Shown piece after piece: positions 94-5,897 of a stretch of DNA of 5,897 nucleotides. The stretch lies in IMG/VR virus record IMGVR_UViG_3300002546_000025; one strand, given 5' to 3'. The stretch's first letter is position 1; each line of letters starts with the position of its first letter. This stretch comes from a virus. The position numbers and the translations under genes were made by a program. The notes under the pieces are model-generated. The model ran no database searches, had not been told where the DNA came from, and saw only the letters and a program-made list of their open reading frames with translations.

Positions 94-211
94 CGAGTCA
101 CCGACCGTCATCGCGCTCGAATACAAGGGCTTTGACCTGGGATATGTCATATCCGCGCTGCCGACCGTATCGCTCGCCAGCAAGACCCCTGACAAGGCCG
201 TAGGCGGATAA
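1..211 (+). CDS. 3' end of the Zot/gI-like assembly ATPase gene (continuation of 4867..5804). Codons are phased at 2, 5, 8..., with stop TAA at 209-211.
   Basis: This frame reads LAGYLTVTQNGQPIRQVSFRDLTDAGYTITYESPTVIALEYKGFDLGYVISALPTVSLASKTPDKAVGG*. Its first 31 residues duplicate the last residues of the ORF that runs off the window end. The joined gene is 938+211 = 1149 nt, or 382 aa. Confidence 0.85.
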   Translation, partial: LAGYLTVTQNGQPIRQVSFRDLTDAGYTITYESPTVIALEYKGFDLGYVISALPTVSLASKTPDKAVGG

Positions 212-462: not shown

Positions 463-480
463 ACCCCGGATTCCCGGGGT
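463..480. other. Perfect 7-bp stem / 4-nt loop hairpin between convergent genes. It may be a bidirectional terminator or a structural element.
   Basis: ACCCCGG(463-469), loop ATTC, CCGGGGT(474-480). The right arm abuts the stop codon of the minus-strand regulator (480-482). There is no U-tract on either strand, so terminator function is uncertain. Confidence 0.4.
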
Positions 481-689
481 CACTCGGTCTCTATCACCAC
501 ATCGCCAGATGCATTGATCTGCACGTAAGGCACTGATCTATCAAGGATTTTGTGCACAAGCTCGCTGTCCCGCATCGGCGGCATGCCGCGCTTCACGAGT
601 AACTTGTTGATTTCTATGCATTTTTGCCGGATCGCCTCTTGTTCGGCGTTTGTAAGGCGGATCGTTGCTGGCATTTTCAATTGGTCCAT
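480..689 (-). CDS. Small ribbon-helix-helix-like transcriptional regulator (putative phage repressor or copy-control protein), 69 aa counted from ATG 689.
   Basis: It is the only supported minus-strand gene and is divergent from rep. The sequence MDQLKMPATIRLTNAEQEAIRQKCIEINKLLVKRGMPPMRDSELVHKILDRS fits a beta-strand (ATIRLT), helix, turn, helix RHH pattern. A GGGTG motif lies 5 nt upstream of ATG 689. Alternative starts are TTG 704 (track) and ATG 674. Confidence 0.6.
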   Translation of the reverse strand: MDQLKMPATIRLTNAEQEAIRQKCIEINKLLVKRGMPPMRDSELVHKILDRSVPYVQINASGDVVIETE

Positions 690-720
690 ATTGACACCCG
701 TCAATCAGCATACGTGCATG

Positions 721-747
721 CATGTGATTTGTGTTGACGCATGCAAG
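721..747. repeat. Copy 1 of a 27-bp imperfect direct repeat (putative operator). It overlaps the -35 element of the rep promoter.
   Basis: CATGTGATTTGTGTTGACGCATGCAAG matches 771-797 at 20/27 positions. The shared cores are ATGTGATTTG and GCATGCAA. A GCATGC palindrome lies at 739-744 and another just upstream at 716-721. Confidence 0.55.
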
Positions 748-761
748 TTCATCCGTATACA
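734..761 (+). promoter_or_regulatory. Sigma70-like promoter for rep and the + strand operon.
   Basis: TTGACG (734-739), a 16-nt spacer, then TATACA (756-761). It is about 50 nt upstream of the rep start and is flanked by the two repeat copies. Confidence 0.5.
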
Positions 762-770
762 TTCCGCCTC

Positions 771-810: not shown

Positions 811-1941
811 ATGTTTATCGATTGGCTTACGGTGTCTCAAGAGCATCAGCACGACCTTCCGGTTGTGTGCGATGTGATGACCATCACGATTGATACGAAC
901 ACCAATGAAGTGCTCTCCACCCGCCAGCCTCGCTTCAAGCATGAGGCCAGCTATTCCACTTCGGTCACGATCCATGTGCAGGGGCGGAAAGTCCGTGTTG
1001 AAGGCAACCCAAGCCGGGTAGGGCGCCTGGACAACCTGTTCGGCTTCTCGACCATCGAGCAGTGCGTTTCGGTCTACAACCAGCTTCTGGCCGAGTACGG
1101 CCTGCCGGGCTTTACCCGCTGCACTCGCGTTGATCTGCGGGACGGCGCGTCAGGTGCAAAGACCGGCGATCGCGTGGCAGACGGCGCCAAGATCGAGCGG
1201 ATCGACCTGACCACGAACGTATCGGTAGGAGAGGGCAACGTCCTTGCCTACCTGCGCGGCGTTTCCTCCCAGCGCATCGGGCACAGCATCGGTTTCCTGT
1301 ATCCCAACGGCCGCACCGTTGCGTGGACCCCGAAGGGCAATGGCAAAGGCGGGCGCCTCCAGTACCGCAAGGCCTATGACAAGGCTTTCGAGCTGGACGA
1401 GAACCTGCTCCCCAAGATCAAGCGCCTCTACGGCGATGAATCCACCGAGTTCCTGTATGTGCAGCGCGTCCGCGACTACTGCGCCCTTCATGGCGTTGTT
1501 CGGATGGAGCAGGAGCTGAAGAACGAATTTTTGCAGCGTGAATGCTTGGCCTATTGGGGCCTGTTTGACGAACGGCGTTTTGCCGAACTCCACGACGAGT
1601 TTTTGAGAATTGACGAGCGACTGAAGGTGACCGCAATGGACATCGTTTCCATATCCGAACAGCTCTTGGCTGAGCAGATCGTAAACACCACCCGTGCTGC
1701 AAACACCACCGCTATGTATGCGATCCAGTGGATGCACGGTCAGCAGTTCGACTTCAACAAGTCCGCCGTCCAGGAACACGCCGCTCGCCTCAATCGCATC
1801 GGTATCAACATCCGCAACGCCTGCGACACCTCGCGCTTCGCCCCCGTCTTCGTTCGTCAGGCCCGCGAGATCACCAAGTCCACCGTGCTGGCCATCCCGA
1901 GCTGGTATCAGCGCCCGAACCATTTGCAGGTGGCGGCATGA
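811..1941 (+). CDS. Rolling-circle replication initiation protein, gpII / phage CRI-like, 376 aa.
   Basis: The N-terminus MFIDWLTVSQEH resembles the (I/F)D(W/M)L(T/V) N-terminal motif of filamentous-phage gene II/CRI proteins. It is the largest ORF after gIII, lies upstream of the ssb, and is GC3-rich. GGAG (802-805) lies 5 nt before ATG 811. The track start at 787 sits inside the GCATGC palindrome and has no SD. Confidence 0.8.
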   Translation: MFIDWLTVSQEHQHDLPVVCDVMTITIDTNTNEVLSTRQPRFKHEASYSTSVTIHVQGRKVRVEGNPSRVGRLDNLFGFSTIEQCVSVYNQLLAEYGLPGFTRCTRVDLRDGASGAKTGDRVADGAKIERIDLTTNVSVGEGNVLAYLRGVSSQRIGHSIGFLYPNGRTVAWTPKGNGKGGRLQYRKAYDKAFELDENLLPKIKRLYGDESTEFLYVQRVRDYCALHGVVRMEQELKNEFLQRECLAYWGLFDERRFAELHDEFLRIDERLKVTAMDIVSISEQLLAEQIVNTTRAANTTAMYAIQWMHGQQFDFNKSAVQEHAARLNRIGINIRNACDTSRFAPVFVRQAREITKSTVLAIPSWYQRPNHLQVAA

Positions 1942-2012
1942 ATTTCGCCCGCTTCATGGTTTTTTTCATGACTGCTTTTGCTATCGCATTCATTTGGAAG
2001 TTCTCCCAATGA
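1938..2012 (+). CDS. 24-aa hydrophobic single-TM microprotein (MNFARFMVFFMTAFAIAFIWKFSQ).
   Basis: Its ATG overlaps the rep stop as ATGA (1938-1941). An AGGTGG motif lies 4 nt upstream. Its stop overlaps the next ATG, again as ATGA. Confidence 0.5.
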   Translation: MNFARFMVFFMTAFAIAFIWKFSQ

Positions 2013-2095
2013 TCGCCGCGACCGTTTCCCTGCTCGCAACCCTCGCCGGTGGCGCCATCGCGCTCTACCTCGTGCGTTTGGAGTTCCGCCCATGA
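2009..2095 (+). CDS. 28-aa hydrophobic single-TM microprotein (MIAATVSLLATLAGGAIALYLVRLEFRP).
   Basis: There are ATGA overlaps at both ends (2009-2012 and 2092-2095). GGAAG lies 8 nt upstream. Confidence 0.5.
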   Translation: MIAATVSLLATLAGGAIALYLVRLEFRP

Positions 2096-2322
2096 GAACC
2101 GTGAGCTTCCAAGGCACCCAGCTCACCAGCGGCCAGCGCCGCCGCCTTCAAGAGCAACAGCAGGCCCGGCCATTCGTGAACCCGGTTCTGCAACAGCAAG
2201 TAAACGAAACCCTGGCAGCGCTCGAAGCTCGCCAGTCCCAGGGCATCAAGCCCGAACGCCAATGGTTCTTGGAACGTCAAGAGCGTGGCACACCCTGCGT
2301 TGCCGACCTGTTCGGCTTTTAA
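2092..2322 (+). CDS. 76-aa hydrophilic Q/R-rich protein of unknown function (MRTVSFQGTQLTSGQRRRLQEQQQARPFVNPVLQQQVNETLAALEARQSQGIKPERQWFLERQERGTPCVADLFGF).
   Basis: It has an ATGA overlap with the preceding micro-ORF, and GGAG (2080-2083) lies 8 nt upstream. It ends 12 nt before the ssb start and fills the gap exactly. Confidence 0.55.
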   Translation: MRTVSFQGTQLTSGQRRRLQEQQQARPFVNPVLQQQVNETLAALEARQSQGIKPERQWFLERQERGTPCVADLFGF

Positions 2323-2334
2323 GAGGCAATACCC

Positions 2335-2622
2335 ATGGCTATGACTATGAAGATCGAAACCACCGGCAACTTCCGTACCGGCATCGCTGCTAAGTCGCAG
2401 AAACCCTATTGGATGGCCGAAGCTTTCGCGCATCTGCCGGGCGTTCCGTATCCGCAGAAGTTCAGCTACTACGCCGCCTCCCAGCAGGAAGTGCTGCCAG
2501 TCGGTCATTACGAGTGCGACGTTTCTTGCTCGATCAAGGATGACCGCATCCACTTCGAGGTGGACCCGCGTCAAGCCCGCCGCATTTCCGCTCCTGCTCC
2601 TAAGGCAGTAGGTGCTAACTAA
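2335..2622 (+). CDS. ssDNA-binding protein, gpV-like, 95 aa.
   Basis: The position (downstream of rep) and size fit gpV. Several segments align by eye with M13 gpV: SQKPYWMAEAF with QGKPYSLNEQL, PYPQKF with EYPVLV, and PVGHYECDV with APGLYTVHL. AAGAGG (2321-2326) lies 8 nt before the ATG. Confidence 0.75.
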   Translation: MAMTMKIETTGNFRTGIAAKSQKPYWMAEAFAHLPGVPYPQKFSYYAASQQEVLPVGHYECDVSCSIKDDRIHFEVDPRQARRISAPAPKAVGAN

Positions 2623-2753
2623 TGGACACCTTTGTCTGCGACGAATGCGGCGAAGATTTTGATGAAGATTCAGATGGATCGGAGTTCGCTGTTGTTGACG
2701 ATCCTGAAGCCGGCACCCTTTGCGCTTTTTGTAATTCAGAAGTAACGGAGTAA
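2622..2753 (+). CDS. 43-aa highly acidic CxxC-N24-CxxC (zinc-ribbon-like) microprotein (MDTFVCDECGEDFDEDSDGSEFAVVDDPEAGTLCAFCNSEVTE).
   Basis: It is below the ORF-track length cutoff and was found by manual translation. Its ATG overlaps the ssb stop (TAATG, 2620-2624). AGGTG (2610-2614) lies 7 nt upstream. It has 15 D/E residues and no K/R/H. Four Cys form two CxxC knuckles. Confidence 0.55.
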   Translation: MDTFVCDECGEDFDEDSDGSEFAVVDDPEAGTLCAFCNSEVTE

Positions 2754-2760
2754 CAAAACA

Positions 2761-2892
2761 GTGGATTGCACCGCACAACTTACCGCCGAGTGCGTAACTA
2801 CGGTGTTTTCCGCTGGCTTCTTTCTCACGGTCACATGTTGGGGCCTGGGAATAACCCTCGGCGTCGCTATCGGCGTCATTCGCAAACTGTAG
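2761..2892 (+). CDS. 43-aa hydrophobic membrane protein, a candidate minor virion-cap protein (gVII/gIX-like), with a GTG start.
   Basis: The translation is (M)DCTAQLTAECVTTVFSAGFFLTVTCWGLGITLGVAIGVIRKL, with a TM segment and a basic C-terminus. GGAG (2747-2750) lies 10 nt upstream. Stop TAG (2890-2892) sits within the AGGAG SD of the coat gene. Its position directly 5' of the major coat gene matches gVII/gIX in Ff phages. Confidence 0.5.
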   Translation: MDCTAQLTAECVTTVFSAGFFLTVTCWGLGITLGVAIGVIRKL

Positions 2893-3041: not shown

Positions 3042-3079
3042 CCCTCTTCGGGGGAGGGGCTTCGGCCCCTTCATTCATT
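3042..3079 (+). terminator. Intrinsic-terminator-like hairpin(s) directly after the major coat gene.
   Basis: AGGGGC(3055-3060), loop TTCG, GCCCCT(3065-3070), followed by the T-rich TCATTCATT. An alternative upstream stem is CCCTC(3042-3046)/GAGGG(3054-3058). Ff phages also place a strong terminator after gene VIII. Confidence 0.7.
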
Positions 3080-3202
3080 ATGGAAGAAGCGCAAATAGCA
3101 CTTACCGCAGCGGACCTGGCGATGCTCGCCTATTCGCTCGTATTCATTGGCGGAGTATTCGGCGGATGGGCATTCATCACTGGAGTAAATCAGCGGTTCT
3201 AA
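3080..3202 (+). CDS. Possible 40-aa TM microprotein (MEEAQIALTAADLAMLAYSLVFIGGVFGGWAFITGVNQRF) that overlaps the gIII start.
   Basis: The ATG at 3080 comes immediately after the terminator, and the stop is TAA at 3200-3202. It has a clear hydrophobic helix but no SD, and it overlaps the gIII signal-peptide codons by 37 nt in another frame. Confidence 0.3.
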   Translation: MEEAQIALTAADLAMLAYSLVFIGGVFGGWAFITGVNQRF

Positions 3203-4528: not shown

Positions 4529-4867
4529 ATGGCTGCCATCGGTAACTTCTTTACAGCGCTGCTAGCCAAGATCGTTGGCTTCGCTAAATGGTTTCTGTCT
4601 GTCTTCACGCAGATATTCAAGGACATCTGGAACATGGCAACGGACCTGGGCTGCTGGTTCGTAGATGGCATGCTTTCCGTGGCCGCAACAGCGTTAAACG
4701 CAATAAACATACCGTTCGATCCTCAGACGTATTACTCAATGATCCCGCCCGAGGTCGGCCAGATGCTCGGCGCAATCGGAGTTACTCAGGCGATAACGAT
4801 CATCGTCGCTGCCCTGGTAATCCGATTCATCCTTCAAACCGTTCCGTTTGTTCGCTGGGGTTCCTGA
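4529..4867 (+). CDS. Minor coat protein, gVI-like, 112 aa, multi-hydrophobic-segment membrane protein.
   Basis: ATG 4529 comes 1 nt after the gIII stop. Its size equals that of M13 pVI (112 aa). It has hydrophobic N-terminal and C-terminal segments, and its position between gIII and gI is canonical. The track's TTG 4481 start would overlap gIII by 47 nt. Confidence 0.7.
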   Translation: MAAIGNFFTALLAKIVGFAKWFLSVFTQIFKDIWNMATDLGCWFVDGMLSVAATALNAINIPFDPQTYYSMIPPEVGQMLGAIGVTQAITIIVAALVIRFILQTVPFVRWGS

Positions 4868-5897
4868 TGATCAACCTGATGCTTGGCCAGCCCGGTGGCG
4901 GCAAGTCGCATGAAGCCGTTGTCTTTCACCTGATCCCCGCGCTTAAGCAAGGGCGCAAGGTCATCACAAACCTCGCCCTGGTAATGGAGAAGTTCCAGGC
5001 TTACTACCCTGAGTATTGCCACCTGATCGAGATACGCGAGCCTTACACCGAGCGCTACATTGACCCGAAGACCAGGGAGGAGGGCAGCCGCCTCGTTCGG
5101 CCGTTCAGCCAGGAGAGCCACTACGGTGACCCATGGCGACAGGAGGAAACCGGGACAGGCCCGCTCTACATCATCGACGAATGCCACTTGGCCCTGCCGG
5201 TTCGTGGAACGCCAATCGAAGTTGAAGAGTGGTACTCACTGCACCGTCACGAAGGCGCTGACGTCCTGTTGATTACCCAGAGCTACGGCAAGATCAACCG
5301 GGCGATCCGCGACCTCGTCCAGGTGGTGTATCGCTGCAAGAAGGCCACCGCGTTCGGTTCGAATGATCGCTACATTCGCAAGGTCCAGGACGGGCTACGC
5401 GGTGAGGTCGTAAACACCTCGATCCGCCAGTACGAGAAAACCTATTTCGGTTTCTGGAAAAGCCACACGCGATCTTCATCAGCCGCTGCCGAGCTTCAGG
5501 CCAACGATATTGTTCCGATCTGGAAGCGCTGGCCGTTCAAGGGCGCAGCCATCATGTTCACGATTGCGGCCTGCATGATCGTCTGGAACCTCAACCGCGA
5601 CACCGGTAAACAACCCCCGCCAGTCAAACGTTCTGAGCCGGCTCCCGTTGTCCAGGTGCAGCAAGAACCCTCTGCGCCGCCTGCCGAAGTCGCTCAGCCT
5701 CGCGGACCTGAGCAGCAGATACACCCGTATCAGGGTTATCAGCTCTTCCTATCGGCAGTTATGAAGGGCGACCGCCCAGACCAGGATGGCAACCTGCGCC
5801 CATACCTCGCCGGATACCTGACCGTCACCCAGAATGGCCAGCCGATCCGGCAGGTCTCGTTCCGCGACCTGACCGACGCTGGCTACACCATCACCTA
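4867..5897 (+). CDS. Zot / gI-like P-loop NTPase (assembly and export ATPase). It is truncated by the window end and continues at 2..211, giving 382 aa in total.
   Basis: It is absent from the ORF track because there is no stop before the window end. Its ATG overlaps the gVI stop (TGATG). Walker A is GQPGGGKSH (aa 7-15) and Walker B-like is LYIIDECH (aa 100-107). A TM segment GAAIMFTIAACMIVW (aa 226-240) is followed by a Pro/Gln-rich linker and a C-terminal domain. This is the Zot-family architecture. Confidence 0.85.
   Translation, partial: MINLMLGQPGGGKSHEAVVFHLIPALKQGRKVITNLALVMEKFQAYYPEYCHLIEIREPYTERYIDPKTREEGSRLVRPFSQESHYGDPWRQEETGTGPLYIIDECHLALPVRGTPIEVEEWYSLHRHEGADVLLITQSYGKINRAIRDLVQVVYRCKKATAFGSNDRYIRKVQDGLRGEVVNTSIRQYEKTYFGFWKSHTRSSSAAAELQANDIVPIWKRWPFKGAAIMFTIAACMIVWNLNRDTGKQPPPVKRSEPAPVVQVQQEPSAPPAEVAQPRGPEQQIHPYQGYQLFLSAVMKGDRPDQDGNLRPYLAGYLTVTQNGQPIRQVSFRDLTDAGYTIT
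5805..5897. repeat. Right copy of the 93-nt exact terminal redundancy.
   Basis: It is identical to 1-93. Confidence 0.95.

Follow-up and report, generated by a model that had tools for sequence, protein, structure and literature searches.

Overlapping stop and start codons that chain small hydrophobic genes are familiar from filamentous phages (inoviruses): the gene V-VII-IX-VIII block of the Ff phages (M13/f1) consists of such genes, which are translated by re-initiation. A similar chain is present in the DNA analysed here, the whole 5,897-nucleotide stretch of IMG/VR virus record IMGVR_UViG_3300002546_000025 (hereafter the window), where three small open reading frames (ORFs), which we call orfA, orfB and orfC, lie between rep, encoding a rolling-circle replication initiator, and ssb, encoding a single-stranded DNA-binding protein. 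Both systems link tiny hydrophobic proteins by stop/start overlaps within an inovirus operon, but in Ff these genes encode structural proteins, do not vary and come after gV, whereas orfA and orfB lie before ssb and are variably present.

The closest described peptides come from Pf phages. PfsE (PA0721, Pf1 orf30) is an inner-membrane peptide of 30 residues that has PilC as its binding partner and blocks pili as well as superinfection; its gene lies in the main operon, is conserved and is dispensable for virion production (PMC8764522). PftP4 (PA0726.1) of Pf4 is a 33-residue membrane-anchored, membrane-permeabilising toxic peptide with one transmembrane (TM) helix. The ATG of its micro-ORF, which had gone unannotated, overlaps the zot stop codon, and the micro-ORF is co-transcribed with a core gene and unneeded for phage production (PMC11769263). 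Annotation routinely overlooks micro membrane peptides of the PfsE and PftP4 types, whose effects extend to pilus function, superinfection, quorum sensing and the viability of the cell. An earlier note on the window, made from its letters alone, held that single-TM microproteins at this position have no textbook counterpart, which is too strong in view of these two published peptides. The 24-residue orfA and 28-residue orfB products resemble PfsE in their single-pass size of around 30 residues, their hydrophobicity and their location, within a probable Pseudomonas inovirus, in the main operon, and resemble PftP4 in start codons that overlap the upstream stop (ATGA at 1938 and 2009) and in having one predicted TM segment. 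They differ in that PfsE is encoded after ssb in another phage lineage and PftP directly after zot, whereas the window peptides are encoded after rep and before orfC.

We consider it probable that the three small ORFs are real, coupled genes with three different evolutionary statuses, and that they mark an accessory slot; this is a statement about structure and evolution from which functions are excluded. New here are the slot after rep, hypervariable and filled by ATGA-linked cassettes, and a 28-residue gene that is widespread and unannotated; a second Pseudomonas inovirus lineage appears to have its own, unrelated set of micro membrane peptides. No established view is overturned by the findings in the rep-ssb interval.

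Junctions and coding status of the three small ORFs

The genes of the interval and its two flanks are as follows.

811-1941, plus strand: rep, rolling-circle replication initiator, 376 residues from MFIDWL (Pfam Phage_CRI, 1.2e-8; G2P_X_C, 2.3e-20)
1938-2012, plus strand: orfA, hydrophobic micropeptide of 24 residues, family F8 (read from the sequence; homologues in loci L009 and L038)
2009-2095, plus strand: orfB, single-TM micropeptide of 28 residues, family F0 (conserved; in-frame substitution pattern)
2092-2322, plus strand: orfC, soluble Q/R-rich protein of 76 residues (phrog_7248)
2335-2622, plus strand: ssb, Pf3-type single-stranded DNA-binding protein (PF17878, 6e-26; phrog_2866)

The rep gene ends in GGCGGCATGA, so that ATG 1938-1940 overlaps the rep TGA at 1939-1941, and further ATGA overlaps occur at 2009-2012 (orfA/orfB) and 2092-2095 (orfB/orfC), exactly as the earlier note had read these junctions and the three ORFs. 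The ORFs tile the interval up to a 12-nucleotide spacing between orfC and ssb; because of this spacing, and because ssb is preceded by an AAGAGG of its own, ssb probably initiates independently. The note had also placed a motif resembling a Shine-Dalgarno (SD) sequence before each of the three start codons, and all are present at those sites. AGGTGG (1928-1933) lies within the last rep codons (QVAA, conserved), 4 nucleotides before the first downstream ATG, and GGTGG is found after rep in 46 distinct junction contexts irrespective of which cassette follows; GGAG (2080-2083), in the likewise conserved LEF codons of orfB, precedes orfC and recurs in 29 junction contexts. The motif leading from orfA to orfB (GGAAG, 1996-2000) is weak, however, and an SD-like word is missing from 24 of 177 junction contexts. 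Stop/start overlaps are found elsewhere in the genome, between ssb and the next ORF (TAATG, 2620-2624) and between pVI and pI (TGATG, 4865-4869); ATGA coupling is a genome-wide style and is not special to the rep-ssb interval.

The tiling had been called very unlikely by chance. We kept the rep ATGA fixed and shuffled positions 1942-2334 with dinucleotides preserved. A three-ORF ATGA chain arose in just 4 of 40,000 shuffles, but an ATGA-only chain of any number of ORFs spanned the interval in about 3% of them, and under looser rules (gaps of up to 15 nucleotides, ATG or GTG starts) 11% of shuffles were tiled. Tiling is therefore only moderately unlikely in such GC-rich DNA, and the comparative evidence is decisive.

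For this comparison a Rep-based scan of IMG/VR gave 80 loci with Rep identities of 76-100%, and a scan of GTDB genomes gave 33 more, mostly from Pseudomonas; parsing of the ORF chains left 108 loci that carry rep together with orfC, which form the denominator for the counts below. In this lineage, to which the P. aeruginosa phages WX_Y and 17897 belong, Rep is of the RstA/pII type and ssb of the Pf3 type. The only close phage in GenBank is silverpheasant213 (MZ474491), which aligns at about 85% over 811-2585. The frames are kept in these relatives, the conservation that the earlier note had named as the check on its proposal: among 213 chain junctions from rep to orfC, 204 are -4 overlaps (ATGA or GTGA) and 7 are -1 overlaps. 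The pooled ratio of non-synonymous to synonymous substitution rates (dN/dS) in frame is 0.13 for orfB and 0.21 for orfC, next to 0.13 for rep and 0.135 for ssb, whereas the wrong frames give values above 1.4 for all genes compared. Conserved frames, lengths and junctions, the low in-frame dN/dS and the synonymous excess in orfA described below together argue that all three small ORFs are coding.

The smallest product, that of orfA, is MNFARFMVFFMTAFAIAFIWKFSQ (24 residues), short, very hydrophobic and rich in aromatic residues. Its maximum Kyte-Doolittle value over 15 residues is 2.32, and that of the orfB product is 2.14; each value supports one TM segment, and the description of both as hydrophobic peptides of single-TM size has held. 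Homologues of orfA were found only in L009, with one residue different, and L038, with five conservative differences. A degenerate-pattern search returned just these two known IMG/VR contigs and none from JGI metagenomes, and searches of Pfam and PHROGs gave no match. In the divergent pair (orfA against L038) 7.8 synonymous and 7.2 non-synonymous changes were counted where 2.9 synonymous changes were expected (binomial P ~0.004); the synonymous and non-synonymous proportions are pS 0.56 and pN 0.12 (pN/pS ~0.22), and the replacements are hydrophobic to hydrophobic. The order orfA-orfB-orfC recurs only in L038, and L009 has it with an extra cassette. From silverpheasant213 orfA is missing by an exact 71-nucleotide indel running from ATGA to ATGA, and in phages whose Rep is 97-100% identical its place is taken by unrelated cassettes. 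All relatives other than L009 and L038 either lack orfA or have something else in its place. By these comparisons orfA is rare and exchangeable, one of many genes that can fill a hypervariable slot immediately behind rep.

The product of orfB, MIAATVSLLATLAGGAIALYLVRLEFRP (28 residues), belongs to a family with a consensus of roughly M-I-A-(A/P)-T-x3-L-x2-L-A-G-x7-(F/W)-x-R-(S/P). It is present in 50 of the 108 loci, and a pattern search returned 43 loci with 42 distinct nucleotide sequences, always of 28 codons. Third positions vary in 25 of 27 codons, and the pooled dN/dS in the other two frames is 1.8 and 4.2. In silverpheasant213 the peptide is 25/28 identical and both ATGA joints are kept; orfB is also found in WX_Y (1134-1220, ATGA on both sides), in 17897 from a GTG start at 2645, and in Pseudomonas sp. 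PA15. One metagenome-assembled genome carries an orfB 26/28 identical to that of the window beside a Rep that is only 51% identical. Even so widespread a gene is unannotated in all three GenBank records inspected (MZ474491 1767-1853, OQ354711 1134-1220 and OR621025 2645-2731), and Pfam and PHROGs searches with it gave no match. Gene finders normally skip ORFs of fewer than 30 codons. The data suggest an ancient, dispensable but strongly constrained peptide, predicted to lie in the inner membrane with its N terminus out and its C terminus in, on the basis of positive-inside charges; an AGG small-residue motif in mid-helix would be suited to helix-helix contacts.

The third ORF has a different standing. 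orfC matches phrog_7248, a family of unknown function, over its full length (E 4.8e-36, 124 bits; its residues 1-76 align with profile positions 1-77 of 78), and its hydrophobicity profile shows no TM segment. It follows rep in all 108 loci, in which Rep identity falls to about 48%, and occupies the same position in phages 17897 and WX_Y; for these reasons we regard orfC, from its distribution, as a core gene of the replication module of this lineage and not an insertion. The earlier note had treated the trio as one insertion between rep and ssb, a view that does not survive the comparison: in 47 of the 108 loci an ATGA links rep straight to orfC, orfB is present in about half, and only orfA behaves like an inserted gene. 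An exhaustive hidden Markov model search of 1.84 billion representatives returned 85 clusters of the orfC family at 50% identity. Ten members were read; all are small, some have roughly 50 additional N-terminal residues of unknown function, and no informative domain fusion was seen among them. Homologues are nameless or called hypothetical in their sources, a Pfam search with orfC gave no match, and the PHROG and Pfam searches linked it to neither RstB nor RstC of CTX-phi, which likewise come after an RstA-type Rep and with which no direct comparison was made. Structure prediction, which the earlier note had proposed for the 76-residue protein, yielded an AlphaFold2 model (49-sequence alignment) with helices at 13-24 and 31-49 and conserved extended termini, and Foldseek of this model against the PDB returned zero matches. 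Designer pentatricopeptide repeat proteins, which appeared in a PDB profile search, were set aside as relatives of orfC: the score was a sum of weak repeat matches in which no single stretch was significant, an artefact of a KEQG-x-KPE helix-turn motif.

Some variants of orfC deserve mention. In silverpheasant213 the gene has a 42-nucleotide in-frame N-terminal extension. A 14-residue leader (MIQMTESKPGEGMT-) was seen in L001 (1850-1891), L005, L012, L024, L027, L042, L046, L060 and L090; it precedes orfC in the 90-residue variants and also heads unrelated cassettes encoding Cys-rich proteins of 63-71 residues and family F1 proteins of 94-96 residues. Its DNA contains GGGGAGGGCATGA, a strong SD with an in-frame internal ATG, and the leader might serve as a portable module for initiation or be a scar left by recombination. 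The orfC copies of L015, L018, L022 and L090 are disrupted by indels, several of them near a GGCATCAAGCCCGAA stretch and seen by BLAST as single 1-nucleotide gaps, and in L003 the alignment has no gap but a stop codon ends the gene early; these five broken copies may reflect errors of assembly or truly defective variants. Between orfC and ssb, a more distant clade and the P. aeruginosa phages carry a conserved ORF of 84-90 residues (phrog_6290, unknown function; motif FLTFRRxP...PSWAY), with examples in L048, L054, L082 (3062-3325) and L083 (1456-1719); neither the window nor its close relatives have this ORF.

The variable stretch between rep and orfC

The distance from rep to ssb ranges from 238 to 948 nucleotides, even among phages whose Rep proteins are more than 97% identical. 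Beyond the 47 loci in which rep meets orfC directly, 12 have the order rep-orfB-orfC and the rest have one to four cassettes in between. These cassettes fall into at least 19 sequence families, in combinatorial order, and hydrophobic micro-TM peptides make up 8 of the 19. The first slot, directly after rep, can hold alternative micro-TM peptides (F6, 29 residues; F7, 28 residues; F12, 38 residues) as well as cassettes of non-membrane type: Cys-rich zinc-ribbon-like proteins, a basic 49-mer, a DNA methyltransferase and an RMF-like 50-mer. A second slot lies between orfB and orfC. Around unrelated cassettes the flanks remain close at the nucleotide level, with identities of 93-95% for the 3' end of rep and 95-98% for orfC, so that cassettes must be replaced quickly compared with the pace of point divergence. 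The region after rep is thus a hot spot of cassette turnover among phages with 93-98% identity around it.

Two cassettes resemble proteins of described families. In L025 and L028 a DNA methyltransferase of 208 residues (phrog_757, E 3.8e-65, HPPC motif) directly follows rep and is ATGA-coupled on both sides; a methyltransferase in an inovirus of about 7 kb suggests an anti-restriction role. A cassette of 50-61 residues resembling ribosome modulation factor (RMF), located between orfB and orfC in L022 and after rep in L101, matches PF04957 with E 1.7e-5 and 25.2 bits, under the cut-off of 27.9, and may be a phage-borne mimic of a hibernation factor.

The arrangement invites comparison with the moron or accessory hot spots of temperate phages and with integron arrays, which by analogy likewise gather unrelated small genes, variable in number and order, at a fixed site with conserved flanks. 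The differences are that the cassettes here have no promoters, attC-like repeats or integrase, and are joined in line by 4-nucleotide ATGA joints that couple them. A more ambitious reading would make the stretch from rep to orfC a dedicated array of promoter-less cassettes, in which the ATGA joints serve both as re-initiation signals and as recombination seams, orfB represents a new, widespread and hitherto unannotated class of 28-residue inner-membrane effector, and orfA, F6, F7 and F12 are fast-turnover specificity variants in phage-phage or phage-host conflict. We put this forward as a speculation that we rather doubt; if true, it would describe a minimal, integron-like system of accessory-gene exchange for single-stranded DNA phages of about 6 kb. 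In either case the recruitment of promoter-less genes through translational coupling can be studied in a natural setting at this slot, and its peptides offer a cheap panel of short synthetic genes in which to look for new exclusion, anti-defence or membrane-targeting activities.

A further variable region was seen in pIII, whose N-terminal 200 residues are on average only about 25% identical in 37 loci (Rep >=85%) with Rep identities of 88-100%. Because of this low identity the presumed receptor-binding domain of pIII would be a second hypervariable module.

Candidate roles and rival explanations

The overlaps, together with SD motifs that are weak or absent, suggest a mechanism in which ribosomes finishing rep, orfA and orfB would start again on the AUG that overlaps each stop. 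Expression of the small genes would then be tied to the low level of Rep, ssb would re-start at its own SD, and the orfA and orfB peptides would be placed in the inner membrane. The comparison itself shows the modular exchange of promoter-less cassettes at both slots (rep-orfB and orfB-orfC) between otherwise near-identical phages. By analogy with the published peptides, orfA and orfB might be membrane-acting effectors of the PfsE or PftP4 kind, directed at the host or at competitors, much as the earlier note had proposed with exclusion or host modulation; we offer this role tentatively, and would not be surprised to see it fail. An accessory or regulatory partnership of orfC with Rep or ssb is suggested with low confidence.

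Several results weigh against one or another part of this account. The case for coding in orfA comes from three sequences and is effectively one divergent comparison. As rep and orfC are directly joined in 47 loci and orfB is missing from 58 of the 108, orfA and orfB are dispensable for the basic life cycle. Termination/re-initiation coupling is something we infer from overlap geometry only. BLASTP of orfA and orfB gave no alignment with PfsE (Pf1 orf30) or with PftP (PftP1 = MIDWEFLVPVAMGWALHHWWSVMTALAAVGVPP), and the conserved aromatic YxWGW of PfsE (residues 16-20) is absent from both peptides; for want of similarity and of this motif, orfA and orfB are not members of the PfsE or PftP families. 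The orfC model is only moderate (pLDDT, the predicted local distance difference test, 70; pTM, the predicted template modelling score, 0.34) and has no structural neighbours. Finally, the type of cassette in the first slot is not associated with the pIII N terminus (identities of 0.27 versus 0.26, with pIII starts called crudely), and the three orfA carriers have different pIII N termini, so that there is no support for receptor-matched exclusion.

A different use of the same geometry would be a relay, in which orfA and perhaps orfB are kept open just to carry ribosomes from rep to orfC and their peptides are functionless. Nearly all inserted segments are indeed uninterrupted ORFs with ATGA joints, their content is extremely diverse, many junctions are without an SD so that downstream expression plausibly depends on translation upstream, and the loci with rep joined to orfC show that the peptides are not required. 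For a relay, however, any open frame would suffice, yet orfB is held at exactly 28 codons, with a dN/dS of 0.13 and variation at third positions across 42 sequences; it stays nearly identical beside a Rep that has diverged to 51%, and the substitutions in orfA are conservative. We judge the relay improbable. Still less is to be said for the interval being mainly a non-coding cis element (an origin, a packaging signal or a structured RNA) with ORFs incidental to GC-rich sequence. The shuffles that gave ATGA-only or loosely tiled chains, and an antisense ORF of 278 residues at 2065-2901, do show that long ORFs arise easily in this DNA. But codon-position pattern and dN/dS fit the annotated frames only, indels come in multiples of three (the 42-nucleotide orfC leader is one), the antisense ORF is broken in silverpheasant213, an Rfam scan of the whole window gave no match, and wholesale replacement between near-identical phages would not be tolerable for a cis-essential element. 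This explanation is effectively refuted.

Granted that the peptides are made, they could instead serve in the virion or its assembly, as minor proteins that correspond to Ff pVII and pIX but whose genes have moved to the replication module. In size, hydrophobicity and predicted N-out/C-in topology they do fit pVII and pIX, and the Ff genes for the small cap proteins are likewise translationally coupled. Their position does not fit: orfA and orfB lie upstream of ssb, and the canonical positions are held by TM ORFs of 43 residues (2761-2892) and 40 residues (3080-3202) that flank the coat gene. Moreover, the 58 relatives without orfB have the same structural module, and in relatives the slot of orfA holds soluble Cys-rich proteins, the methyltransferase and other cassettes, which makes a virion role very improbable. 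Small membrane toxins, that is addiction or lysis-type peptides like PftP4 or type I toxins in place of exclusion factors, have a precedent in PftP4, itself ATGA-coupled (PMC11769263), and the short, aromatic and very hydrophobic orfA would suit such a role. Against this stand the lack of sequence similarity to PftP, the cost of a potent toxin coupled constitutively to rep in a chronic, non-lytic phage, and the fact that no antitoxin candidate was seen. We think toxins unlikely, while recognising that they overlap with the preferred explanation of membrane-acting effectors, from which they differ only in target.

The remainder of the genome

The ends of the window are identical (1-93 is an exact repeat of 5805-5897), which indicates a circular genome of 5,804 nucleotides. 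From its relatives we take the window to be a small circular inovirus of Pseudomonas/Stutzerimonas type, with Pseudomonas as the probable host: the nearest orfC proteins are from Pseudomonas and Stutzerimonas, and the relatives occur as prophages or episomes in many Pseudomonas species. Its other features are as follows.

480-704, minus strand: repressor-like divergent ORF, 74 residues (phrog_5642, function unknown)
734-763, plus strand: promoter-like site upstream of rep, TTGACG-18 nucleotides-TACATT (consensus match only)
2622-2753, plus strand: acidic CxxC...CxxC ORF, 43 residues (weak, sub-threshold zinc-ribbon matches only)
2761-2892, plus strand: TM ORF, 43 residues (counterpart in phage 17897 annotated 'gp7-like')
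between the 43-residue and 40-residue TM ORFs, plus strand: major coat protein, 44 residues, leaderless
3053-3072, plus strand: terminator-like GC hairpin (8 pairs, 6 of them G-C) with a T-rich tail, 3' of the coat gene (consensus match only)
3080-3202, plus strand: TM ORF, 40 residues
3166-4527, plus strand: pIII-like ORF
between the pIII-like ORF and Zot/pI, plus strand: pVI (DUF2523)
4867 across the circle junction to a stop near 208-210, plus strand: Zot/pI

The site at 734-763 is the sole consensus promoter match on the plus strand of the window, and since a terminator-like hairpin follows the coat gene, we place the three small ORFs in the promoter-proximal part of a single rep-to-coat operon. 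This operon likely terminates at the 3053-3072 hairpin; a second, weaker match of 5 pairs is located at 2801-2815, within the 43-residue TM ORF.

The CxxC ORF overlaps the ssb stop by 1 nucleotide (TAATG). At its position silverpheasant213 encodes a different protein, a poly-Asp CxxC protein of 46 residues, and the position may be another variable micro-gene site. The antisense ORF on the minus strand (2065-2901) spans orfC, ssb and the genes that follow; silverpheasant213 has it only in fragments, and GC-rich codon usage is therefore its probable origin. Upstream of rep, a cluster of TGCATGCA-type palindromes (708-799) flanks the promoter-like site, which is also bracketed by a 25-nucleotide direct repeat (722-746 and 772-796) near the divergent 74-residue ORF. 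Beside this ORF, the palindromes and the direct repeat look like an operator/repressor switch.

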